Below, piece after piece: positions 41,098-52,907 of a stretch of DNA of 64,000 nt. Numbering within the stretch: position 1 is the stretch's first letter; every line of letters starts with the position of its first letter. A program made the translations under genes and the position numbers. This DNA comes from Candidatus Aldehydirespiratoraceae bacterium (GTDB taxonomy: Bacteria > Actinomycetota > Acidimicrobiia > Acidimicrobiales > Aldehydirespiratoraceae): the NCBI GenBank assembly GCA_965249055.1, contig CBDFKX010000002.1:1481835-1545834 (forward strand). Reading direction: 5' to 3'. The notes under the pieces were generated by a model, which saw nothing but the letters and a program-made list of their open reading frames with translations, did not search any database and was not told the origin of the DNA.

Positions 41098-42608
41098 CGC
41101 GGCATCAGGCCCGTCAACCCAACGTCTTGTGGTTGATGTGCGACGAGTTGCGGCCCGACGGCGTGGGTTGCTATGGCAACAAGTGGGGGGTTGTCGATAC
41201 ACCAAACCTTGATTCTTTGGCTGAGACCGGTACCCGTTTTGATCGTTTCTTTGTGAACTCTCCGATTTGTGTGTCGTCGCGCACGGCTTACCTGACAGGA
41301 CGTCGCCCCGCGGTTACGGGCGCGTACGGCAACGAAGCTTCGTATCGCTGGTTCCCACCCGAGACCTATACACCGCAACAACAAGAGACTCCCGAGACAT
41401 TTGTGGAGATGCTGGCTGATGCTGGCTACGTCACGCGCAACCTTGGGAAACAGCATCTCAACAGATTGCTTGAGCCATTCGAAACGTCTGACACCAGTAA
41501 CGCGGATCAGTGGCGTCTCATGCAAGCAGTCTCTCAGGTTGGAGTCGATATCCAGCGCAACGGGGTCGGCTCTGCGATCGGAGGTGTCTGGCCCACCGGT
41601 CACGAATATCCCCACGACGCGCTGGCAGATCAGGCGGGGGCGTGGTTTGCCGAGGCGCCGACGGACAAGCCGTGGTTGCTGCGTGTTTCGTTCTTGCAAC
41701 CGCACACCCCAGTTGTGGTTCCTGAACCGTTCGCGAGCCGTTTCGTTGACCAGGACTGGACCACACCCAGAGATATCCGCGCTTCGGTCAGCGCCTTTGA
41801 ACAGAACTTCGGTGACGTCACTAGGCCAAGCGATGTCGATGATGAGTGGATCAGCTTGGCGAGAGCCCGCTACTACGGGTTGACAGCATGGCTCGACCAC
41901 CAGATTGGGCAGGTCTTGTCCGCGCGCGAAGAGTCTGGACAGCGTGACTCGACCGTCGTGGTGTTCTGCTCAGACCACGGAGCCGGGTTGGGTGAAAGGG
42001 GCAACTGGGCCAAGCATGTTTTTGCTCCCCAAGTTCAGGGTTCGCCGCTGATCGTGGCGGGGGCAGGTATAGACCAGGGCGTGCTGCGCAACGACCTCTG
42101 TGAAGCAGTTGACTTTGCTCCAACAATCCTCGCGCTCGCCGGGGTGGAGCCGACGGCTGCTGTTGACGGCCGTGACCTATTCGCGTCAAACAGCGGGGGA
42201 CCGGCATTCGGCGCAATCGGATACGGGCTTCGAGAATGTTTGGCGCAACCAATGACACGTAACGGACAGTGGCCCGACGGCCGGGGTTGGCCGCAACGTT
42301 TTTGTGTGCGTGATGATCGCTACCGACTTGATCGCTCGACTCGAATGGACGGGCATGTCATTGACGCTGAGGACACGGATGCGGATATCTTCTTGGCCGA
42401 TTCGCAAACGGACCCCGATGAGATCTGCAACCTGGCCGACGATGGGGCCAATGCTGAGGTACGTGATCGGTTACTTTCGCTGCTTGAGAGCCACATTGTC
42501 AGAGCAGCCGTTCCTGAACTCGATGACTTCTACCAAGCTTGGCCGTCGATCATTGAGGAGATAATCGCTGAGAGGCTGGGACCTAAGAGTTCGGGAGAAG
42601 ACACTTGA
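41094..42608 (+). CDS. type I sulfatase 2 (variant C-V-S-S-R signature)
   Basis: LWLMCDELRPD, SPICVSSRTAYLTGR, CSDHGAGLGERG. ATGA-type overlap with the upstream gene. Confidence 0.8.
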   Translation: MTRHQARQPNVLWLMCDELRPDGVGCYGNKWGVVDTPNLDSLAETGTRFDRFFVNSPICVSSRTAYLTGRRPAVTGAYGNEASYRWFPPETYTPQQQETPETFVEMLADAGYVTRNLGKQHLNRLLEPFETSDTSNADQWRLMQAVSQVGVDIQRNGVGSAIGGVWPTGHEYPHDALADQAGAWFAEAPTDKPWLLRVSFLQPHTPVVVPEPFASRFVDQDWTTPRDIRASVSAFEQNFGDVTRPSDVDDEWISLARARYYGLTAWLDHQIGQVLSAREESGQRDSTVVVFCSDHGAGLGERGNWAKHVFAPQVQGSPLIVAGAGIDQGVLRNDLCEAVDFAPTILALAGVEPTAAVDGRDLFASNSGGPAFGAIGYGLRECLAQPMTRNGQWPDGRGWPQRFCVRDDRYRLDRSTRMDGHVIDAEDTDADIFLADSQTDPDEICNLADDGANAEVRDRLLSLLESHIVRAAVPELDDFYQAWPSIIEEIIAERLGPKSSGEDT

Positions 42609-44029
42609 TGGCCAACTCTTCGAGTCCCTCGAACTTGGTGCGACCCAACGTTTTGTTCATCATGACCGACCAATGGCGCTGGGATTGGCTCAGTTGTATG
42701 GGGACTGTCGGCCCGAGCACGCCACACGTTGACGCCCTAGCTGCGCGCGGCGTTCATATGACTCACCTGGTTACGGACTCTGCGATTTGCGCGCCAGCAC
42801 GGATTGCTCTGGCATCAGCGATGTCACCGCTACGTCTTGACTGTTTGACGAACAGTTCGGTCCTTCCGGCCGGTACCGAAACGTGGCACCACCGTTTCCG
42901 TGACAGCGGATACCGGGTTGGGTTGGTCGGCCAAACTGATCTGTCGAAACCGACCCGCAACATAGGGTTGAAGGGCAATCGCGAGCTTGTCTATGAATGG
43001 GGTTTCAGCGACGGGCTCGAGGTGGAGGGCAAGATGCATGCCGCGGCTGGTGGAGAGGGATATCCACTGGGACCGTACGGCGCGTTCCTTGCTTCACGAG
43101 GACTATTCGAGGCATTTCACCACGATTACAACGCCCGCAACATCCCCATGTACAAGGCCATGTTCAGTAACGGGCATTACGACGACCCGGACTGGTATCG
43201 GGATTCGGTGCTTCCCGCGGATGCATTTGCAGACACCTGGATCGGTGAACGCGCGGTGGACTGGCTTGCTACGGCGGGAGACGGCCCGTGGAATCTGATG
43301 GTGAGTTTCGCTGGACCCCATGATCCCTTCGATCCACCGACCGTCTGGGCCGACATGTTCCGACATGCCGACATGGCCGATCCGGTTCTCAACGCCAACG
43401 ACAACAAACCGCTTTACCTCACGACTTCGGCTTGGGGATTTGATGCTGCCCACATAGCGGAGATTCGGCGTCAATACAGCGCCTCGTGTGCCGCCATTGA
43501 TCACGAGGTTGGCCGCATGGTGGCCGTGCTTGAGGACCGCGGGCTTGTTGCTGAGACGATTGTGGTCTTCACCTCAGATCACGGGGAGATGCTCGGCGAT
43601 CATCACCGGTTCCAAAAGCATGTCGCGTATGAGCCCTCGGTGCGGGTTCCTTTTGTGGCTGCCGGTCCTGGTATTGCCCAAGGAAGCAGTGAAGCGCTGG
43701 CGCAGCTCAGCGATGTGGGGCCGACCCTTTGTGAACTCGCTGGTCTTGAACCCTGGCGCGGTGTTGATGGAATGTCGTTTGCCTCGACTCTGACCTCTCC
43801 CACGGTTCCGCATCGTGATGCTGTCGTCTGTGTTGAACCGCATTACCGCATGGTTCGAACCCAAGACCGCAAATTCATCTGGAACCGCAACGACATCGAG
43901 GAGGTCTACGATCTCGGCGGCGACCCCGGTGAGTGTGAAAATCTGCGTGGGACTGCGCCCGAACACGAACTACTCGACCTCCTGATTGAGCACACCGGAC
44001 CCTTGCCCGAAGGCCCTAGTCTGTTGTGA
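42605..44029 (+). CDS. type I sulfatase 3
   Basis: LFIMTDQWRWD, SAICAPARIAL, TSDHGEMLGDHH. Overlaps the upstream gene. Confidence 0.8.
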   Translation: MMANSSSPSNLVRPNVLFIMTDQWRWDWLSCMGTVGPSTPHVDALAARGVHMTHLVTDSAICAPARIALASAMSPLRLDCLTNSSVLPAGTETWHHRFRDSGYRVGLVGQTDLSKPTRNIGLKGNRELVYEWGFSDGLEVEGKMHAAAGGEGYPLGPYGAFLASRGLFEAFHHDYNARNIPMYKAMFSNGHYDDPDWYRDSVLPADAFADTWIGERAVDWLATAGDGPWNLMVSFAGPHDPFDPPTVWADMFRHADMADPVLNANDNKPLYLTTSAWGFDAAHIAEIRRQYSASCAAIDHEVGRMVAVLEDRGLVAETIVVFTSDHGEMLGDHHRFQKHVAYEPSVRVPFVAAGPGIAQGSSEALAQLSDVGPTLCELAGLEPWRGVDGMSFASTLTSPTVPHRDAVVCVEPHYRMVRTQDRKFIWNRNDIEEVYDLGGDPGECENLRGTAPEHELLDLLIEHTGPLPEGPSLL

Positions 44030-44953: not shown

Positions 44954-45727
44954 TTGACTGACCAGCCGACTTCTCCAACGAACAGGCAACCTAGCGACGA
45001 GCGCTACATGCACGGGTACCACGAGGTGATCGTGGGGTCGTACACTCGCCATACCGCGGAGACGTGCGCGGGCTTTCTGCTGCCTGGCCTGCAACCGGAC
45101 ACAGTGCTACTCGATTTGGGTTGTGGCCCCGGCACGATCACTGCCGGTCTGGCTCGCCGGGTCGGGCGCGCGGTCGGATTAGATGCATCCGCGGAGATGG
45201 TCGACGCTGCGCAAAACCACGCCGCAGACTGCGGGATCGACAATGCGACTTTTGAGGTCGGTTCGGCTTACGACCTGCCATTCAGCGATGACAGCTTCGA
45301 CGTGGTGTACGCCCATCAGGTGTTCCAGCATCTGTCGCAACCCGTCGAGGCACTGCGGGAAGTCCGCCGAATCCTGAAACCCGGAGGGATAGTGGCAATT
45401 CGTGACTCCGATTACGAAACGATGATCCACGCTCCAGTGACCGAGGCCATCGTTCGTTGGCGAGAGCTCTATCACCAGGTGTCCAGGGCCAACGGCGGCG
45501 AACCGAACGCTGGGCGGCATTTGTTGTCCTGGGCGACCGAGGCCGGATTTGTTGAGCCCGAAGTCACCACCGACACGGTCACGCATGCGACTCTCGAAGG
45601 GCGCACCGCTTGGGGCGAGATGTGGGCGGTGCGCGTAGTAGACAGCGACTTTGCCCGTCACGCGGTAGACCACGGGCTCTCCACCCGAGCCGAACTGCAG
45701 CAAATATCGGACTCCTTTCGCCACTGA
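44954..45727 (+). CDS. class I SAM-dependent methyltransferase (see finding: TGA at an expected Trp, ORF continues to 45796)
   Basis: VLLDLGCGPGTIT, FDVVYAHQVFQHL, LKPGGIVAI. Confidence 0.75.
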   Translation: MTDQPTSPTNRQPSDERYMHGYHEVIVGSYTRHTAETCAGFLLPGLQPDTVLLDLGCGPGTITAGLARRVGRAVGLDASAEMVDAAQNHAADCGIDNATFEVGSAYDLPFSDDSFDVVYAHQVFQHLSQPVEALREVRRILKPGGIVAIRDSDYETMIHAPVTEAIVRWRELYHQVSRANGGEPNAGRHLLSWATEAGFVEPEVTTDTVTHATLEGRTAWGEMWAVRVVDSDFARHAVDHGLSTRAELQQISDSFRH

Positions 45728-45919
45728 ACGAGCGAACCCTCCGGTTTCTGGGCCTACATGTGCGGCGAAGTCATCGCCACCTGCCCCTCAACTTGACCAG
45801 ACTGGAGTTCTTGTCCTGCCCAGCAGTCTGCTGAGTGATCTGCGGGATCGTTCGGCGAAACCAACTAGGGTCTGGCGCTGATGGCTGGAGGCCGACGAGA
45901 GGAGGACCTTGGGGTGGTG

Positions 45920-46912
45920 ATGTCCTCGGAGGTTGCGGGTCGGGTTCCGCTCGTTGACTTGTCGGGAGCGTTCGAGCCAGGCCGACGGCGCGATCACGCC
46001 GTTGAGGCGATCAGGCGGGCCTGCGAAGAAGTGGGTTTTCTGGTCATTACAGGTCACGGAGTCAGCAGCGAAACCGTGCAAAGGATCGAAGAAGTCTCCC
46101 GCCAATTCTTCGCCCTCCGGATTACCGAGAAGATGAAACTCATGTGCCCGGAAGGCAACAGGCGGGGCTATAAGCCTCTCGGTGGCACGCTGCTGGCGTC
46201 GTCACGTGGGGTTGAGACACCCCCAGACCTGTGCGAGTTGTACCTCCTCAACCGGTTTGATGACTCCGAAGCGGCCCGGCGCGCTGGATTGCGCGAAGGC
46301 CGCGAAGCCTTCTTCGCGCCAAACGTCTGGCCTGACCCAGAGCAGGTTCTGAATTTCCGGGAGACCTTCGAGACCTACTACGCGGTGATGGAGGGTTTGG
46401 CCGCCAGGCTGATGGCCTTGATGGCGCTGGCCCTCGGCCTGAACGAGCACTGGTTCGACGACAAGATCGCCGACCATGTCACGGCCCTCTCCGCCATCCA
46501 CTACCCGGCCCTTGGCGTAGCCCCTCTCCCCGGGCAGTACCGACGCGGGCCGCATTCGGACTGGGGCAGCCTCACTGTGTTGCACCATGACGGTGGACCG
46601 GGTCTGCAGATCATGTCGCCCGAAGGCCAATGGGAGGACGTACCGGTGGTCCGCGGGTCCTTTGTGGTGAATATCGGTGACCTGATGGCAATGTGGACCA
46701 ACGACCGTTGGGTTTCGACGGTGCACCGCGTCGTCGTGCCATCCGATGACTGGCGTGAGCGGATCTCGATCGCGTTCTTCCACCAACCGACTTACGACGC
46801 ACGCATCGAATGCATCCCCACCTGCACGTCAACCGACGACCCTCCTCGTCATGAACCGACCACTTCAGGCGAGTGGCTGGAATCGATGATCGACAAGACC
46901 ACCGCCTATTGA
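45920..46912 (+). CDS. 2OG-Fe(II) oxygenase (isopenicillin-N-synthase-like family)
   Basis: VPLVDLSG...GFLVITGHGV (DIOX_N), HSDWGSLTVLHHD, WVSTVHRV. Confidence 0.75.
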   Translation: MSSEVAGRVPLVDLSGAFEPGRRRDHAVEAIRRACEEVGFLVITGHGVSSETVQRIEEVSRQFFALRITEKMKLMCPEGNRRGYKPLGGTLLASSRGVETPPDLCELYLLNRFDDSEAARRAGLREGREAFFAPNVWPDPEQVLNFRETFETYYAVMEGLAARLMALMALALGLNEHWFDDKIADHVTALSAIHYPALGVAPLPGQYRRGPHSDWGSLTVLHHDGGPGLQIMSPEGQWEDVPVVRGSFVVNIGDLMAMWTNDRWVSTVHRVVVPSDDWRERISIAFFHQPTYDARIECIPTCTSTDDPPRHEPTTSGEWLESMIDKTTAY

Positions 46913-46989
46913 CGGAGCGGCCAAGACTCGATGTCTCCGAACCTCTAGCATGAGTGCCGGCTGGGACGTACCAAAGACCGGGAGGTCGC

Positions 46990-48009
46990 ATGAACCCTCG
47001 AAGAGACATGGTCATCGGTGCCATTGCCTGCATCGTCATCTTCTTCTTCTTTGTCAGCATCGATTTGTACGAGACAGTCTCGGACTTCACGAGTGAACAC
47101 GAGGGCTGGCAACTCGTTGAGATCCTGGCGGCTGTGCCTACGCTCGCCCTGGTCACCTCCTGGTTCGCCGTGCGGCGCTGGCTGGAAGTAGCCCACCTCA
47201 ACGACAGGCTGGCTCATACCGTCGGACAACTCAAAGAAGCGATTAATGAACGCCAGGCCATGGAGGAACAGATCGGCGAGGCTTACAAAATGGCGGCGAT
47301 GGGCGCGCTATCTGGAGGGCTCACCCGGGAACTCAACAATGTGATGCAGCCGATCGTGACCTTGGCGCAACTGGGAGTCGACCAAATCGACCAAAGCGAG
47401 GCGCAACGGGAGAATATGGGTCGCATACTCTTGGCGGCGGAGCGTGGTTGCAAGATTCTCGAGAGTTCATTGGCTGACCCTGTTGGCGGATTCGGTGACG
47501 CAGAAGAGATCATCCCGTCGCAGGGGTTGTCGAGTGTGATTGCCCAGGTAGGAAAGTCGGTCGGAAACGATGTGACGATTGTGTCCCGCTTCAGCGACGA
47601 GGGTGGCGTGATCTCAGTGAACCGTGAAGAATTCGACTCGGTGTTTACGAGTTTGCTGACCAACGCGGCACAGGCCATGAAGCGTGGGGGCGAGATCACG
47701 GTGGGACTCTCGACCCGCACACTTGACGAGGCCCAGGCGAGTGTGCAGGGAGTTTCAGCTGGCAGCTACTTCAGTGTCACTGTGGCCGACCAAGGCATTG
47801 GCATGACCGATGATGTGCGAACCCAAGTTTTTGATCCGTTCTTCACAACCAAATCGGCCGACGGATGCGCCGGTCTGGGTCTCACCATCGCCTATGAACA
47901 GGTTCACGGATGGTCGGGCAGGATCACTGCGGAATCGTCTTATGGTGAGGGTTCGACGTTCGAAGTTCTCATCCCCCACCACCATGCAGACGAAGCCCCA
48001 GGAGCCTGA
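46990..48009 (+). CDS. membrane histidine-kinase-like protein with Arg in place of the H-box histidine
   Basis: Two N-terminal TM segments. DHp-like ...MGALSGGLTRELNNVMQPI (expected AHELNNP). Intact N, G1 (DQGIGM), F (FDPFFTTK) and G2 (GLGLTIA) boxes. Confidence 0.7.
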   Translation: MNPRRDMVIGAIACIVIFFFFVSIDLYETVSDFTSEHEGWQLVEILAAVPTLALVTSWFAVRRWLEVAHLNDRLAHTVGQLKEAINERQAMEEQIGEAYKMAAMGALSGGLTRELNNVMQPIVTLAQLGVDQIDQSEAQRENMGRILLAAERGCKILESSLADPVGGFGDAEEIIPSQGLSSVIAQVGKSVGNDVTIVSRFSDEGGVISVNREEFDSVFTSLLTNAAQAMKRGGEITVGLSTRTLDEAQASVQGVSAGSYFSVTVADQGIGMTDDVRTQVFDPFFTTKSADGCAGLGLTIAYEQVHGWSGRITAESSYGEGSTFEVLIPHHHADEAPGA

Positions 48010-48012
48010 ATA

Positions 48013-48384
48013 ATGGCGACCGTGTTGGTGGTTGACGACGACCCGGGGGTGCGCTTTGCGCTGACGCGGCTTTTGGATGCTTGTGGTGACCATGAGGTAA
48101 TCGAAGCCGACAGCTGCGAAGCAGCGCTGGAGCTAATGGCTTCCCGCAAGCCGGACCTGGTTTTGACAGAGTCCGTGATGCCGACAATGACCGCGATCGA
48201 GTACATAAAGGCGTTGCGCTGGGCCTGCCCTCGCGCCGGGATCGTGGCTTTGTCTGCGGGTGGTATGCACCAAAGCCCAGAGTTCGCTACCGGCCTTGCC
48301 AGCACCGCAGGAGCCGACGAAGTCCTGCGCAAACCTGTCAAAAACGAACCCCTGCTAGCCGCCGTCAACAAAGTCCTCCGCTGA
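48013..48384 (+). CDS. stand-alone receiver domain with Glu at the phospho-acceptor position
   Basis: VLVVDDDPG..., PDLVLTESVMP (expected DLVLLDxxMP), VALSAG, LRKPV. Confidence 0.75.
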   Translation: MATVLVVDDDPGVRFALTRLLDACGDHEVIEADSCEAALELMASRKPDLVLTESVMPTMTAIEYIKALRWACPRAGIVALSAGGMHQSPEFATGLASTAGADEVLRKPVKNEPLLAAVNKVLR

Positions 48385-48731
48385 GCCCCCGGATTGCCTT
48401 CCCGCAAACCGGCTTGCTCCTAACGGAAGGTGCTCCAAGAGGCGAGGTAAGATAGTGCGGATGGACGGATCGACTGGATCTGCTGCTGATGACGCTGCGC
48501 TTCAGAAGCTCCTTGAAGCTTGCCAACTGTACGAGGACTATTTGGCCGTCAGGTCTGTCGCCGAGTCGGCGACGCTTCGTGATCTGGCGACCAAGGCCGT
48601 GTCTGAGGACAGCTACCTAGACCACGCCTCGACTCGCCGACATGAAATATCGGTCCAGAAAGACTCATATGTCCAAGCGCTGAGGTCCGCCACCGCGGAC
48701 ACCGACGGTCTGGTTTCAGGAGATGTGCGAA

Positions 48732-49115
48732 ATGGCTCTTGCTGAGATAGCAGTGGTTGGCTCCCTAGGCTCCACCTCAGAGCCAGCATTGCTAGCTGCG
48801 GTGCACAAAGCACTGGTCACCGGACTCAGTGTGCCAGAAGACGACCCGACCGTCCTTCTCTCTGACGCGTCGACCAAGAACGCATTATTACCAGGGAAGC
48901 TCGCAAGGATGGTTCTTGTCAGGGTAACGATGTTTGTGGGTCGTAGCCCGGCGACGCTTTCCAAGTTGCACGCAATTATCGCTACCGAACTGAACGCTGC
49001 TGGCATCGAATCAGACGAGATCAGAACGGTCTTCATCGAAACCACAGTGTCCAACTGGGGGATAGCTGGACGGCCGCAGAACGTTGCGAGCGTGGGCTTT
49101 CAGATTCACAGATGA
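48732..49115 (+). CDS. tautomerase-superfamily-like protein (Tautomerase_2 type)
   Basis: ...VRVTMFVGRSPATLSKLHAIIATEL...DEIRTVFIETTVSNWG. The N-terminus is MA..., not the catalytic MP.... Confidence 0.35.
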   Translation: MALAEIAVVGSLGSTSEPALLAAVHKALVTGLSVPEDDPTVLLSDASTKNALLPGKLARMVLVRVTMFVGRSPATLSKLHAIIATELNAAGIESDEIRTVFIETTVSNWGIAGRPQNVASVGFQIHR

Positions 49116-49234
49116 GGAGGTGGCCCGGTGGACTCGACATCAGCGCTGACTCATGGACCCGACCGACCCGACCCTTTTGTCGCGTCTCAGGGCGCTCCAA
49201 ACGCTGGCACTCTCGGGACGACCGTTAGAGGGAT

Positions 49235-49465
49235 TTGATGATCCGAACCGTGACGTTCGACTGCTACGGTACGTTGATTGATTGGGACACCGGCGTGTTG
49301 CAGGCGATCGCTGATGCCTGCGCTGAGTCGCGACAATTCGATGACCAGATTGCGCTCAAGTCCTTTGATCGGGCAGAAATCCTTTCCACTTCTAAGCCGT
49401 ACCGCTCTTACAGAGAAGTCCTCGCCGAAGTAGCGCGGGCCACAGGATCCTACGCGTATTTGTGA
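49235..49465 (+). pseudogene. HAD-superfamily (haloacid dehalogenase type II-like) N-terminal fragment
   Basis: VTFDCYGTLIDWDTG (DxYGTL motif I). Only 76 codons; motifs II-IV are absent. Confidence 0.5.
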
Positions 49466-49511
49466 GTTGTTGGTTGGTTTAGGCGATGTCGACGTCGTCG
49501 GGTCCTGCAGA

Positions 49512-50636
49512 TCACAGGTGCGCCCGCGTCCAGAGGTCTAGGTCGGTGGTGAGTTGTAGGGCGTGGAGGGCTTGTTGGGCGTTTTCGAGTAGTGCGGCGC
49601 CGCGTTTGGCGAAGAACTCGTCGGAGTCGGCGACAGCATCGCCGCCGTAGCGTTGGTGTTCGGTGTCTGAGGCACGTTCGAGCATCAGAGGGGTGAGCCA
49701 GTCGTATTTGACCGCTGAGGCGGCCATGGCCAGTTCGACAATTCTTGGATCGCCGTGCCAACCGGCATCACCGAGGCCACCAACGTAAGCATCGAGTGTC
49801 GCTTGGCGAAGCTGGGGTAGCTGATCCGGCTCAACGAAGAAGTCGAACGCTGCGTCTGGAACGAGGTTTCCTATGTCCTCGCCGAGCGCTCCGTCACCGA
49901 CGAAGGCCCAATCCAGCAGAACAAAGCCATCATCAGTCTCGATCAGGTTCTTGGTCCAGAAGTCAAGGTGGCACAGGGTGCGTGGAAGCGACTCGAGCAC
50001 TGAGTAGAGCCGATGACGCTGTGCGTGCAGTTCGGTGGCGGCCGGCCTCAAAGCCGGGGGGAAGTTGTCGGCAACAACGGGTTGATCCCACGCGCGATCG
50101 TCGTCGAGCAACTCCCAGACAACCGGTTTTTCGCTGCTGTAGTCGCGCAAGAAGCCTTGAGACAGCCATTCAACGTCTGGTAGCGCTCCGCTGAGAGCGA
50201 GTTTGCCTTGAGCTGCTCCCAAACGCCGTGCTGCTTCGGCATAGGTGTCAATGTCCCAGTTCTCGGCTGGTGTGCCGTCAACGAATTCCATGGCAACAAC
50301 CGTGTCTTCGTCGGTGATATCGAGACCCACGCAGACCGGTGCCCGTACACCTTCTTCAGCGAAGCACTGGACGACACCGGATTGGTAGGCGAGAGGCTCA
50401 CGAAGCCAGTAATTCCACCGATCAGTGGATTCGCAGTCCTGTGACCAGTGCCGCGTGAACGCCGTGGTACCAACCTCGCGGTGGCGGGCCAGTCGCTTCA
50501 CGACCAGACGGCGATCACCCTTCGTCAATTCCCAGATATCGGCTGTAAGCCAGCGATTGTGCTGGGGCTCCACGACATCCCACGCGTCCGCCTCCAACCC
50601 AACCCGAATCAGGGTTTCGTTCAGCCGCGGATCCAC
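49512..50636 (-). CDS. phosphotransferase (APH/choline-kinase-like) family protein
   Basis: LCHLDFWTKNLI (Brenner motif HxDxxxxN), LLDWAFVGDGALGEDIG. Confidence 0.7.
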   Translation of the reverse strand: MDPRLNETLIRVGLEADAWDVVEPQHNRWLTADIWELTKGDRRLVVKRLARHREVGTTAFTRHWSQDCESTDRWNYWLREPLAYQSGVVQCFAEEGVRAPVCVGLDITDEDTVVAMEFVDGTPAENWDIDTYAEAARRLGAAQGKLALSGALPDVEWLSQGFLRDYSSEKPVVWELLDDDRAWDQPVVADNFPPALRPAATELHAQRHRLYSVLESLPRTLCHLDFWTKNLIETDDGFVLLDWAFVGDGALGEDIGNLVPDAAFDFFVEPDQLPQLRQATLDAYVGGLGDAGWHGDPRIVELAMAASAVKYDWLTPLMLERASDTEHQRYGGDAVADSDEFFAKRGAALLENAQQALHALQLTTDLDLWTRAHL

Positions 50637-50695: not shown

Positions 50696-51358
50696 CTAGG
50701 GGCTAGGTGTGGAGTTGGAGTCGGGAGGATGGGTGACTTTAAGGGACAAGAAGCGGAGTGGGAGCTCGATCAGCGCGGTGGGACCGTGTGTCACCTCACC
50801 CCGAAATTGCATGGAGTCGCCTGCGGTGAGCACGTACCGCTTGGTGCCGTAGCCGTACTCGACGCAGCCCTCAAGGATGTATATGAACTCCACGCCACCG
50901 TGTTGGAACAGCGGGAAAACCTCGTTGGGTTCGGTGATTGTGACGTACAGCGATTCGATCTCACGGGTTGGACCTCGCAGCGATCCGAGATCGTGATACA
51001 CCCTGCCGGGTCCAGCACCTTCGTGAATGATCTCCATCCCTTGTCCAGCGGGGACGATCACTGCATCGCGTTCTTCGTCCAGCCCTCGAAAAAAGGCTGT
51101 AAAGGGAACCTCGGCCGCGTCAGCCAAGCTGATGAGTGTGCTGAAACTTGGTGAGGTCTGCCCATGCTCGACTTTGGAGAGCATCCCGATTGATAGTCCC
51201 GCGGCGTCTGCGAATTGCTCCATGGTCAAGCCCATGCCCACCCGGAGTTCGCGCACTCGCCGACCAACGCTCTCGCACACCTCATCGGTTGTCAGTCGGC
51301 CTGTTCGGCTGTCGCTGACGGTCCGCGGCGCTTCTGGGTCGCTTCCTTCAGGTGGCAT
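50696..51358 (-). CDS. XRE-family HTH regulator with a C-terminal cupin domain
   Basis: VGRRVRELRVGMGLTMEQFADAAGLSIGMLSKVEHG, followed by a cupin region (FIYILEGCVEY...GDSMQF). Lies 17 nt downstream of the gmaS-like gene. Confidence 0.75.
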   Translation of the reverse strand: MPPEGSDPEAPRTVSDSRTGRLTTDEVCESVGRRVRELRVGMGLTMEQFADAAGLSIGMLSKVEHGQTSPSFSTLISLADAAEVPFTAFFRGLDEERDAVIVPAGQGMEIIHEGAGPGRVYHDLGSLRGPTREIESLYVTITEPNEVFPLFQHGGVEFIYILEGCVEYGYGTKRYVLTAGDSMQFRGEVTHGPTALIELPLRFLSLKVTHPPDSNSTPSP

Positions 51359-51375: not shown

Positions 51376-52731
51376 TCAGAACAGAGTGAGGTACTGGTCG
51401 ATCTCAGATTGGGTGACCTGGTGATGGTGGGCCATGAACTCAGCTTTTTTGGTCTTTACAAAATAGTCCCGATAGGAGCCGTCGGGGGTCATCCCGAGTC
51501 CTTTCTCAAGGACATCGCAGGTGGCCAGGTTTTCTGCTGCATGCAGCAGAGTAGGCGGCAACGTGACGATCCCTCGGTCTGCGATCTCTTCAGCGGAGAG
51601 CTTGAACAAGTTGTCCTCATTCGGTTGACCGGGGTCGACTCCTCGGTCAATACCGTCGAGTCCGCAAGCAAGCATCGCCGCGAACATCAGGTATGGGTTC
51701 GCTGCTCCATCGGCGAGACGGAGTTCCAACCGGTCTGGCTCGGGTATGCGGATCATCTGGGTGCGGTTGTTGCCCCCATACGCCGCGTAAGCCGGTGCCC
51801 ATGTCGCCCCCGATGTTGGGGCACCCACCCCCATTCGCTTGTAGGAGTTGACGATGGGGCAGAGGATTGCGACAAGCGACGGGGCATGTTCGATCAACCC
51901 GGCCGCGAACTGATAGGCCAAGTCGCTCAATCCCAAGCCTTTGGAGTCGTCGTCGCCTCCAACGAAGAGCGGTTCGTTGTCGAGCGACCAAAGGCTTGAA
52001 TGAGCATGGAGCCCGTTGCCGGTCTTGTCGGCGAAGGGTTTGGGCATGAACGTCGCATAGCGGCCATCGCGGGTGGCCATTGTGTGGATCATCAACCGGA
52101 ACAGCACCAGCCGATCAGCGGTTGTGAGGGCATCGGCATACTGCCAGTTCTGTTCGAACTGGCCGTTGGCGTCCTCATGGTCGTTGGCGTAGTTGCCCCA
52201 TCCCATGGCGTTGAGATTGCGTGAGACTTCGGTGAGGTGGGGCAGCATGCGGGTGAGGCCCTTGGCGTCATAACAGGGTTGTTCGTCCACGTCACGCTCG
52301 TCTGCGACCACGATTGACCCGTCGGGGTTCCTGTTGACCAGGGAATACTCGGCTTCGACACCCGCGTTGAACACCAAACCACGCGACGTGAGATCGTCGA
52401 GCGCTTGGCGCAGGATCACGCGTGGTGCATAGGGCCAGAGTTCGCCTTCAACGGTTGGGTCGCATTGCAAGGCGGCGACATTGGGTTGCCATGGCAACTG
52501 GGTGTAGGAAGCGGGATCGGGAATGGCCAAGATGTCGGGGCTAGACGGGTCCTGGCCAATGGGACCCGCGGCAAAACCTGCGAATCCGGCACCTTCGTTC
52601 ATTACGGTCTCGAGCGCTTCAACCGGAACTAGCTTGGCGCACGGTTTGCCGTGCATCTCCACAAACATTGCGTAGATGAACTCGACACCATCGTTTTCGA
52701 CCCGTGCTTTGATTTCTTCGTATGCGCCCAT
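51376..52731 (-). CDS. gmaS: glutamine-synthetase-family ligase, gamma-glutamylmethylamide synthetase-like
   Basis: GS beta-grasp and catalytic motifs (FMPKPF.DKTGNGLHAHSSLW, NRTQMIRIP). GAAGGAG lies upstream of ATG 52731. Divergent from the mgsABC-like genes. The symbol is assigned from context only. Confidence 0.65.
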   Translation of the reverse strand: MGAYEEIKARVENDGVEFIYAMFVEMHGKPCAKLVPVEALETVMNEGAGFAGFAAGPIGQDPSSPDILAIPDPASYTQLPWQPNVAALQCDPTVEGELWPYAPRVILRQALDDLTSRGLVFNAGVEAEYSLVNRNPDGSIVVADERDVDEQPCYDAKGLTRMLPHLTEVSRNLNAMGWGNYANDHEDANGQFEQNWQYADALTTADRLVLFRLMIHTMATRDGRYATFMPKPFADKTGNGLHAHSSLWSLDNEPLFVGGDDDSKGLGLSDLAYQFAAGLIEHAPSLVAILCPIVNSYKRMGVGAPTSGATWAPAYAAYGGNNRTQMIRIPEPDRLELRLADGAANPYLMFAAMLACGLDGIDRGVDPGQPNEDNLFKLSAEEIADRGIVTLPPTLLHAAENLATCDVLEKGLGMTPDGSYRDYFVKTKKAEFMAHHHQVTQSEIDQYLTLF

Positions 52732-52907
52732 CGACAACTCCTTCGTCTGAACTGAACCTGTGCGCGATTCACCTGAGGAAACCTCTACTGTAGGTGAAAT
52801 ATCTTCACCGTTGTCAAGAGATGCGGCTAAGGTTTGCGAACCTGCCCGAGGCAGACCGCCGAGCTTAAACCGCCCGAAGAAAATTCTTGGAGGAGTCGAA
52901 CTCAAGC

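Follow-up and report, generated by a model that had tools for sequence, protein, structure and literature searches.

The stretch of DNA analysed here (the window) is 64,000 nucleotides long and comes from the forward strand of a contig assigned to a Candidatus Aldehydirespiratoraceae bacterium of the class Acidimicrobiia (CBDFKX010000002.1, positions 1,481,835 to 1,545,834). It carries two adjacent genes that resemble a two-component system in which both phospho-acceptor residues have been replaced, the histidine of the kinase-like protein by arginine and the aspartate of the receiver by glutamate. The first gene (46990..48009, + strand) encodes a pseudo-histidine kinase of 339 residues with two transmembrane (TM) segments, a coiled-coil linker, a hairpin resembling a dimerization and histidine phosphotransfer (DHp) domain, and a HATPase_c domain. 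The second gene (48013..48384, + strand) encodes a stand-alone pseudo-receiver of 123 residues, identified by Pfam, PDB alignments and an AlphaFold2 (AF2) model. The stop codon of the kinase-like gene, TGA, is at 48007–48009, and the receiver gene begins 3 nt further on in the same direction, with a Shine-Dalgarno-like AGGAG (48000..48004, + strand) that lies inside the 3' end of the kinase-like gene. A Shine-Dalgarno-like GGGAGG, read from the sequence (46980..46985, + strand), is found 4 nt 5' of the kinase-like ATG at 46990. This ATG is taken as the start instead of a GTG at 46954 because the orthologues all begin with MNPRRDM.

The membrane module of the kinase-like protein (47008..47172, + strand) consists of TM1 (approximately residues 7–29), a loop of 15–20 residues and TM2 (approximately residues 44–61). 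Both segments are Kyte-Doolittle peaks and are helical in the AF2 model. The H-box region, GALSGGLTRELNNVMQP (residues 105–121; 47302..47352, + strand), is located within DHp helix 1, as judged from PDB alignments and family conservation. The protein aligns with CckA (5idj), LvrB and ZraS across the H-box and both DHp helices, and in the phmmer search of the PDB its 'lsggltRelnnvm' is matched with 'laggvaHdfnnll' of CckA and 'magtmaHeinnpl' of LvrB. These matches and the family alignment place Arg113, encoded by CGG at 47326..47328 (+ strand), in the column of the phospho-acceptor His. The domain for catalysis and ATP binding (CA; 47497..47979, + strand) has been assigned from its HATPase_c match (Pfam, 9.9e-17, residues 215–330), its conserved motifs and the AF2 model. 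It contains the N box (N225, 47662–47664), the G1 box (D267xGxG271, 47788–47802), the F box (F281DPFFTTK288, 47830–47853) and the G2 box (G295LGL298, 47872–47883), all on the + strand and all conserved across the family. The motif residues are invariant or nearly so, and the ATP-binding boxes of the Arg types are as conserved as those of the His-bearing relatives.

The kinase-like protein has no Pfam match to HisKA. The DHp of this family is too divergent for that model, which fails likewise on most of the His-bearing relatives (in the range P0025–P0032), and the missing match is therefore a family trait and no sign of degeneration. The top NCBIfam matches are VirA-like and CckA models, all far under their cut-offs. 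The AF2 model is confident only in the CA domain (pLDDT 80–90 there); it resembles the DHp-CA parts of ZraS and CckA, and DivL (4q20) is among the fold matches. Of the features of a class I sensor histidine kinase, this kinase-like protein has the DHp with its H-box and the Bergerat fold with its four boxes (N, G1, F and G2), with Arg113 in place of the phospho-acceptor His. The protein thus fits the definition of a pseudo-histidine kinase by Collins and Childers, in the form in which PMC12632262 cites it, and the missing His suggests that kinase activity has been lost. No close kinase paralogue has been found in the genome; the next best match is 29% identical and covers the CA domain only.

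The receiver matches Response_reg (Pfam, 1.5e-17) and aligns over its full length with archaeal CheY (6er7), KdpE and other receivers. Its 'kpdlvltEsvmptm' is paired with 'kpdlvtmDivmpem' of 6er7, and the alignments with a designed receiver (9xzo) and with XynC (6swl) likewise put Glu53 in the phospho-Asp column. This residue is encoded by GAG at 48169..48171 (+ strand), and its position is also supported by the family alignment and by the AF2 model (pLDDT 94.5), in which it lies at the C-terminal end of strand 3. The model is a canonical (βα)5 fold with five strands and five helices and has a TM-score of 0.88 to the Spo0F and KdpE receivers. D48 has been considered as an alternative acceptor and rejected, this being the common 'PD' residue of strand 3. 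The metal-binding 'DD' residues belong to an acidic pocket, D8-D9-D10 (48034..48042, + strand), and the alignment also identifies S81 at the 'T' position and K107 (48331–48333) at the 'K' position. S81, the β4-α4 segment AGGMHQSPEFATGLASTAGADEV and K107 together span 48253..48333 (+ strand). Measured against the receiver domain PF00072, the protein has the fold and the DD, Ser and Lys residues, with Glu53 in place of the phospho-Asp, and it fits the definition of an aspartate-less receiver (PMC12632262, PMC4395418).

A preliminary description of this locus, made from its letters and open reading frames (ORFs), had claimed membrane anchors, a DHp-like helix, complete N/G1/F/G2 boxes and an Arg codon in place of the H-box His for the first gene. 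For the second, it had claimed a start 3 nt downstream, a retained acidic pocket, Ser and Lys, and a Glu codon in place of the phospho-Asp. Every one of these assignments has stood up against the alignments and models described above, down to the coordinates of the two codons.

A search of 5.8 billion proteins has returned approximately 35 full-length relatives of the kinase-like protein. The closer ones (P0001–P0024, 58–93% identity), which come from Acidimicrobiia metagenome-assembled genomes to judge by their source names, all read GGL[TIV]RELNN, and the more distant ones (P0025–P0036, at most 52% identity) read GGLAHE[FL]NN. Arg occupies position 113 in 25 of 25 clade members, down to 58% identity, and none of E114, N116, N117, Q120 and P121 varies among the 36 family members. 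Maximum-likelihood analysis groups the Arg types in a single clade (100/100 support) that lies inside the His types, also when further representatives are added. A single His-to-Arg change is therefore sufficient. On the receiver side, Glu is found in 22 of 22 orthologues (60–93% identity; VVTEAVMP), and Asp in all 28 close family relatives and in all more distant ones. The Glu and Asp types belong to one family, since both share an unusual conserved segment after strand 4, S[AG]GGMHQxPExAxxLAxxAGAD. Within the Glu clade AGGMHQSPEFATGLASTAGADEV is nearly identical throughout, and the Asp-bearing relatives share it as SGGGMHQxP...AGAD; for these two reasons the β4-α4 segment is likely to be the output face. 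D8 and D9 do not vary in the receiver alignment A2, at least 90% of the rows have D10, and the full-length Glu-clade sequences all have DDD. Some receivers of His/Asp-type relatives (P0158, P0163 and P0169, e.g., L011:7009-7407) read AEHDE or TEHDE where the window has VDDDP. Their second metal-binding acidic residue may be a His, which would strictly make them pseudo-receivers of another sort.

The preliminary description had named two findings that would undermine it, a different conserved His or Asp at the acceptor columns and orthologues that keep the canonical residues. Profile and structure-based alignments show no such residue, and Arg and Glu are fixed clade-wide down to 58% identity. 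Compensation by another His of the kinase-like protein has also been considered; neither the clade nor the family conserves H69, H76 or H306, and H69 and H76 vary within the Arg clade. Further replacements are diagnostic of the clade. In the kinase-like protein these are I95, M119, L157, E158 (Lys/Arg to Glu), S160, E235, G292, A301, Q304, H306 and V326. In the receiver they are A54 (directly following the site), A61 (from Gly, within the MPGMxG loop), Y64, A67, A82 (from Gly, following S81), S88, T98, E103 (from Arg) and R106 (from Gln/Ala, beside K107). Several of these stem-branch replacements, including charge reversals, ring the former active site, which would fit a remodelled contact surface. 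Two metagenomic kinase-like sequences, P0034 and P0280, have a frame change in the CA domain and unrelated C-termini, and are either assembly errors or truly broken copies.

Fourteen gene pairs have been read on DNA. Eight have Arg and Glu. They come from the window, from the genomes of five further species in its genus (L002, L003, L106, L107 and L109), from the metagenome contigs L015/L016 and from L097, which is the Arg type that has diverged most and has a partial receiver with the sequence PDVVVTEPIMAQM. The other six (L010, L011, L012, L013, L014 and L098) are His/Asp pairs, and no mixed Arg/Asp or His/Glu pair occurs among the 14. Nine more Arg and Glu proteins come from contigs of identical length, and are thus probably encoded together on shared contigs. 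A 3-nt gap also separates the two genes of L002, L003 and L015 (Arg/Glu) and of L010, L011 and L098 (His/Asp); L012 has 2 nt, and L013, L014 and L097 have longer gaps. The survey of orthologues for co-variation of the two residues that had been proposed thus gives a perfect result in the pairs read, derived from one transition. A profile scan of genome contigs with the kinase alignment was of no use for covariation, the FDPFFTTK pattern drawing about 600 generic kinases of approximately 30% identity.

Within a sample of 401 genomes across the class and 401 across the order, orthologues of the pair are present only in the window's genus, in six of six species; they are absent from the four genomes of other genera of the same family and from all other sampled genomes. 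The window's genome (3.59 Mb) has ten receiver-profile matches, nine of them above the Pfam cut-off. Glu occurs only in the receiver of the pair. Asp is retained in all nine other matches (eight above the cut-off), which means that normal phosphotransfer still operates in the organism. The receiver of the pair is also the only match whose open frame is too short for an output domain.

The selection acting on the pair has been estimated as the ratio of nonsynonymous to synonymous substitution rates (dN/dS) by the Nei-Gojobori method, with dS at 0.5–0.8 (unsaturated) in the Arg-clade comparisons. For the kinase-like gene and the receiver gene, respectively, dN/dS is 0.126 and 0.170 between the window and L002, 0.158 and 0.185 between the window and L003, and 0.153 and 0.163 between L002 and L003. 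These ratios are no higher than those of a canonical His/Asp pair (L098 and L012; 0.238 and 0.263). Neighbouring genes with the same dS (~0.65) have lower ratios, 0.046 for a regulator with a helix-turn-helix (HTH) and a cupin domain and 0.076 for an enoyl-CoA hydratase. The codon of Arg113 is CGG in some species and CGA in others, and that of Glu53 likewise alternates between GAG and GAA; this synonymous turnover at both sites indicates that the amino acids, not the codons, are maintained. Reversion of Glu53 to Asp would take one third-position change. The most conserved part of the kinase-like protein in the Arg clade is DHp helix 1, the H-box helix (mean majority-residue fraction 0.94), followed by the TM segments (0.92). 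Random decay had already been thought less likely in the preliminary description, and the dN/dS of 0.13–0.19, the synonymous turnover and the clade-wide retention all bear this out. In the P0021 lineage (L015:6001-7934, L109), identity to the window is 67% for the kinase-like protein, 73% for the receiver and 92% for the HTH_3/Cupin_2 regulator; there the pair evolves much faster than the adjacent regulator, with Arg and Glu still kept. His-less HisKA domains and Asp-less receivers make up 0.9% and 2.0% of their kinds (PMC12632262). A single co-occurrence of both losses is unremarkable in large data, and it is the clade-wide retention of both exact residues that is remarkable.

The His has been lost elsewhere in this kinase family. 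A profile search of 1.84 billion representatives has been made, and His is present in 144 of the top 149 matches, which were aligned; one of the five exceptions is a gap at the His column. The exceptions outside the Arg clade have exchanged the His for Gly (P0263 and P0280, GGGFAGELRRVLEP) or for Ala (P0295, GEAFAAKVASVLEP); all three are full-length members of the same two-TM family, and P0407 is also assigned to this second His-less lineage. The Gly and Ala types form a separate clade (100/100) on a long stem, and because His types lie between it and the Arg clade, the His has been lost at least twice. In the Gly/Ala lineage, decay has affected the remainder of the H-box and the branches are long. 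The contig of P0263 has the order SSB gene, kinase-like gene, GyrA-like gene, with no receiver adjoining the kinase-like gene. Around two further kinase-like genes of the lineage (L099:4001-5005 and L100:4001-5014), a six-frame search with hidden Markov models, which found the receiver in four control loci, detected none within 4 kb. The Gly/Ala lineage shows what relaxation looks like in this kinase family. The Arg/Glu lineage does something different, as the partner and the whole interface have been kept.

From the residue identities, intact domains, single origin, purifying selection and co-retention of the pair, we infer that the two genes probably form a functional signalling module, derived from a membrane histidine kinase and a single-domain response regulator, which would signal by regulated binding instead of phosphotransfer. 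As evolution has kept both acceptor swaps, signalling by the pair is probably independent of phosphate. On one ancestral branch of an Acidimicrobiia lineage, His changed to Arg and Asp to Glu, both since kept by selection, and with both acceptors replaced, His-to-Asp phosphotransfer would be abolished. The membrane module may sense something and shift the DHp/CA conformation, with ATP or ADP in the intact CA domain acting as a conformational cofactor. This shift would control the binding and release of the receiver by the kinase-like dimer. Glu53, in an intact Mg/Ser/Lys pocket, may keep the receiver in a phospho-mimetic, active-like state; the retention of S81, K107 and DDD is expected if the longer Glu carboxylate engages the groups that bind phosphoryl oxygens. 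Arg113 and Glu53 may also touch directly across the former phosphotransfer site. The contact is an attractive hypothesis because the two residues are charge-complementary and both longer than the His and Asp that they replace, and it would explain the joint retention of both changes. Once free, the receiver may act on some partner via its strongly conserved α4-β5 face.

Precedents for parts of this scheme are available. DesK H188Q and EnvZ H243Q still activate their pathways, giving a regulated signal without phosphorylation (PMC12033271), and DivL senses its response regulator through DHp-CA without kinase activity (PMC4211667). Asp-to-Glu changes can activate receivers without phosphate, often only along with other changes (PMC4395418). 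A stricter version, in which the pair would be a natural, fully phosphorylation-independent two-component system with the Arg113-Glu53 contact replacing phosphotransfer and the signal passing only by regulated binding, is a tentative proposal that we would sooner doubt than accept.

Several points weigh against a module that signals by regulated binding. The covariation rests on one evolutionary transition, and since this is a single ancestral event and not many independent ones, the perfect agreement of the pairs is unusable as a statistical test. The pairs read on DNA cover no receiver of the P0022/P0023 sub-clade, nor the one beside P0027. An Asp-to-Glu change is often insufficient to activate a receiver (PMC4395418). 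A pure binding model needs neither a complete ATP site nor the general-base Glu beside position 113, yet both are strictly kept. Also, no output partner was found, and the loci compared show no conserved neighbour gene beyond close relatives.

An unlikely alternative, though the best of the remaining ones, is that the kinase-like protein alone is functional, as a scaffold, an ATPase or a modulator, and that the receiver serves only to stabilise it or is a dispensable passenger, no signal passing between the two. The Gly/Ala lineage has no adjacent receiver, which indicates that a kinase-like protein of this family can persist alone. The conservation of the TM module (0.92) is compatible with an intramembrane partner, and a role as scaffold or sensor is known for the pseudo-kinases DivL and PsmA (PMC4211667, PMC12963549). 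However, purifying selection on the receiver is as strong as on the kinase-like protein (dN/dS 0.16–0.19), Glu53 and the α4-β5 face are invariant, and the translationally coupled arrangement has been kept in every Arg-clade locus with enough flanking DNA. The genome also lacks a close paralogous kinase for heterodimerisation.

It is far less probable that the phosphoryl chemistry has changed instead of being lost, with a phosphoramidate on Arg113 passing to an acyl phosphate on Glu53 or to another residue, such as a receiver Ser or Thr. In its most explicit form, an Arg-to-Glu phosphorelay, Arg113 would be phosphorylated by the intact ATP domain and hand the phosphoryl group on to Glu53 in the intact Mg/Ser/Lys pocket, which we regard as very improbable. 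Apart from the acceptors, everything required for phosphoryl chemistry is strictly conserved (N/G1/F/G2; DDD, S81 and K107), and so is E114, the acidic residue beside the acceptor; in HisKA kinases an acidic residue at this position is required for kinase activity. The second acidic residue of the pocket, kept here, survives in only 29% of Asp-less receivers (PMC4395418). Arg and Glu are the chemically nearest phospho-acceptors (N-P and acyl-P), and Glu can be phosphorylated (PMC4395418). No other reading accounts directly for the ATP site and E114 being so strictly kept. On the other hand, the guanidinium group of Arg is protonated and a poor nucleophile unless a dedicated active site is provided, and we know of no histidine kinase that phosphorylates Arg, nor was one found in the literature searched. 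No example of phospho-Glu in bacterial signalling is known (PMC4395418), and the retention of S81, K107 and DD is equally explained by Glu53 mimicking phospho-Asp.

The weakest alternative, that the loss of one phospho-site freed the other from selection and that both genes are heading to pseudogenes, could draw on the undetected HisKA domain, on the single-nucleotide nature of both changes (His CAC to CGC, Asp GAC to GAR) and on the rapid evolution of the L015/L109 pair relative to the neighbouring regulator, but it is essentially excluded by intact reading frames in eight of eight Arg/Glu loci, by purifying selection (dN/dS 0.13–0.19), by invariant Arg and Glu despite synonymous codon change, by the conservation of the H-box helix, by the failure of the HisKA model on His-bearing relatives too, and by the different course of real relaxation in the Gly/Ala lineage.

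The genes around the pair have been compared for candidate partners. The HTH_3/Cupin_2 regulator (50696..51358, − strand in the window) adjoins the pair in L002, L003 and L015 and lies 2.3 kb off in the window. It is absent beside the P0022/P0023 Arg-type loci and all His/Asp loci, and its proximity has been taken as the gene order of close kin, not as a sign that it is the output. Methylation of Glu has been suggested for Asp-less receivers (PMC4395418), and Methyltransf_11 genes lie close to the pair in L003 and in the window (44954..45727), while in L011 and L012 one immediately follows the receiver gene. This link has been rejected because the proteins share only the generic S-adenosylmethionine-binding motif and are not orthologues. 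A conserved protein of about 190 residues downstream of the His/Asp pairs has also been considered; no similarity was found, and one candidate is an aldolase fragment. Promoter and terminator scans gave nothing above shuffled expectation.

Compared with L002, L003 and L015, the window has extra genes on both sides of the pair, at 45881–46912 and 48455–50636. The upstream one encodes a 2-oxoglutarate-Fe(II) oxygenase. Downstream, before the regulator, are a 96-residue ORF without a Pfam match, a tautomerase-like ORF (48723..49115), a 76-residue ORF without a Pfam match (49235..49465) and an APH-family phosphotransferase gene (49512..50636, − strand). The locus looks like a spot of gene gain and loss. 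Next to the HTH-cupin regulator, on its far side, is a gene of the glutamine synthetase family (51376–52905, − strand), and upstream of the locus is a sulfatase gene (42605–44029, + strand); both are unlinked to the pair in other lineages.

Each half of the pair is of a known kind, since His-less HisKA domains, Asp-less receivers and the replacement of Asp by Glu have already been described. A cognate, operon-encoded pair in which both acceptors are replaced by conserved residues and the rest is retained has not been found in the open-access papers and preprints searched. Almost all characterised bacterial pseudo-receivers are orphans, and their on/off switching was called 'a mystery' in a 2025 review (PMC12632262), while characterised pseudo-kinases such as PsmA have a variable residue at the His position and degraded ATP sites (PMC12963549). 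The pair is therefore of value chiefly as a clean natural test system. It is minimal, two small proteins with one residue changed in each and the rest intact, and it comes with built-in canonical controls in the His/Asp sister pairs and with a second His-less lineage that took a different route. The pair raises the questions of whether a sensor kinase can signal to its partner purely by binding, as a natural counterpart of DesK H188Q and EnvZ H243Q, whether Glu in an intact pocket truly mimics phospho-Asp, and why an ATP site is kept without an acceptor.

Among the known systems, the best sequence and structure matches of the kinase-like protein are the CckA/VirA/NtrB-type (HPK4-like) kinases, with which it shares the H-box pattern GGxAH[DE][FL]NN apart from the replaced His, the DHp-CA fold and all ATP boxes. 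Its scores are far under the cut-offs of these families, and it is minimal by comparison, with two TM segments and no PAS or receiver domain. DivL and DivK of Caulobacter provide a functional parallel. DivL also has a class I kinase fold with a replaced phospho-His, it binds a single-domain receiver instead of phosphorylating it, and information passes through its DHp/CA conformations (PMC4211667, PMC5361649). However, DivL is no close relative, has several PAS domains and bears Tyr in place of the His; with Arg, two TM segments and no PAS N-terminus, the window protein is not a DivL orthologue. DivK keeps its Asp and must be phosphorylated by other kinases in order to bind, whereas the window receiver has lost the Asp and its genome has no other kinase of this family.

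Plant pseudo-response regulators (PRRs), fungal Rim15p and Chlamydia ChxR also have Glu at the phospho-site and function without Asp phosphorylation. No replacement is commoner than Glu, which accounts for 26% of Asp-less receivers (PMC4395418) and is characteristic of plant PRRs (PMC12632262). Those proteins have output domains (CCT, kinase and winged helix), and the bacterial examples are mostly orphans. The window receiver, on the other hand, stands alone, is encoded 3 nt after a kinase-like partner without a phospho-site, and retains the full DD/S/K pocket. PsmA, a hybrid histidine pseudokinase of Streptomyces, is likewise actinobacterial, lacks the H-box His, is conserved in a single taxon and functions independently of phosphotransfer (PMC12963549). 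In PsmA any of several residues (E, D, Q, V or Y) stands in place of the His, the ExxN and ATP-binding motifs have disappeared and the fused receiver still has Asp, whereas in the window pair the Arg is invariant, ExxN and the ATP-binding boxes are intact and the receiver is separate and carries Glu. In DesK H188Q and EnvZ H243Q, the passage of a regulated signal by binding from a His-less sensor kinase has been shown experimentally (PMC12033271). These are laboratory mutants acting on Asp-bearing regulators by a secondary route, whereas the window pair is natural, fixed throughout its clade and changed in both partners.

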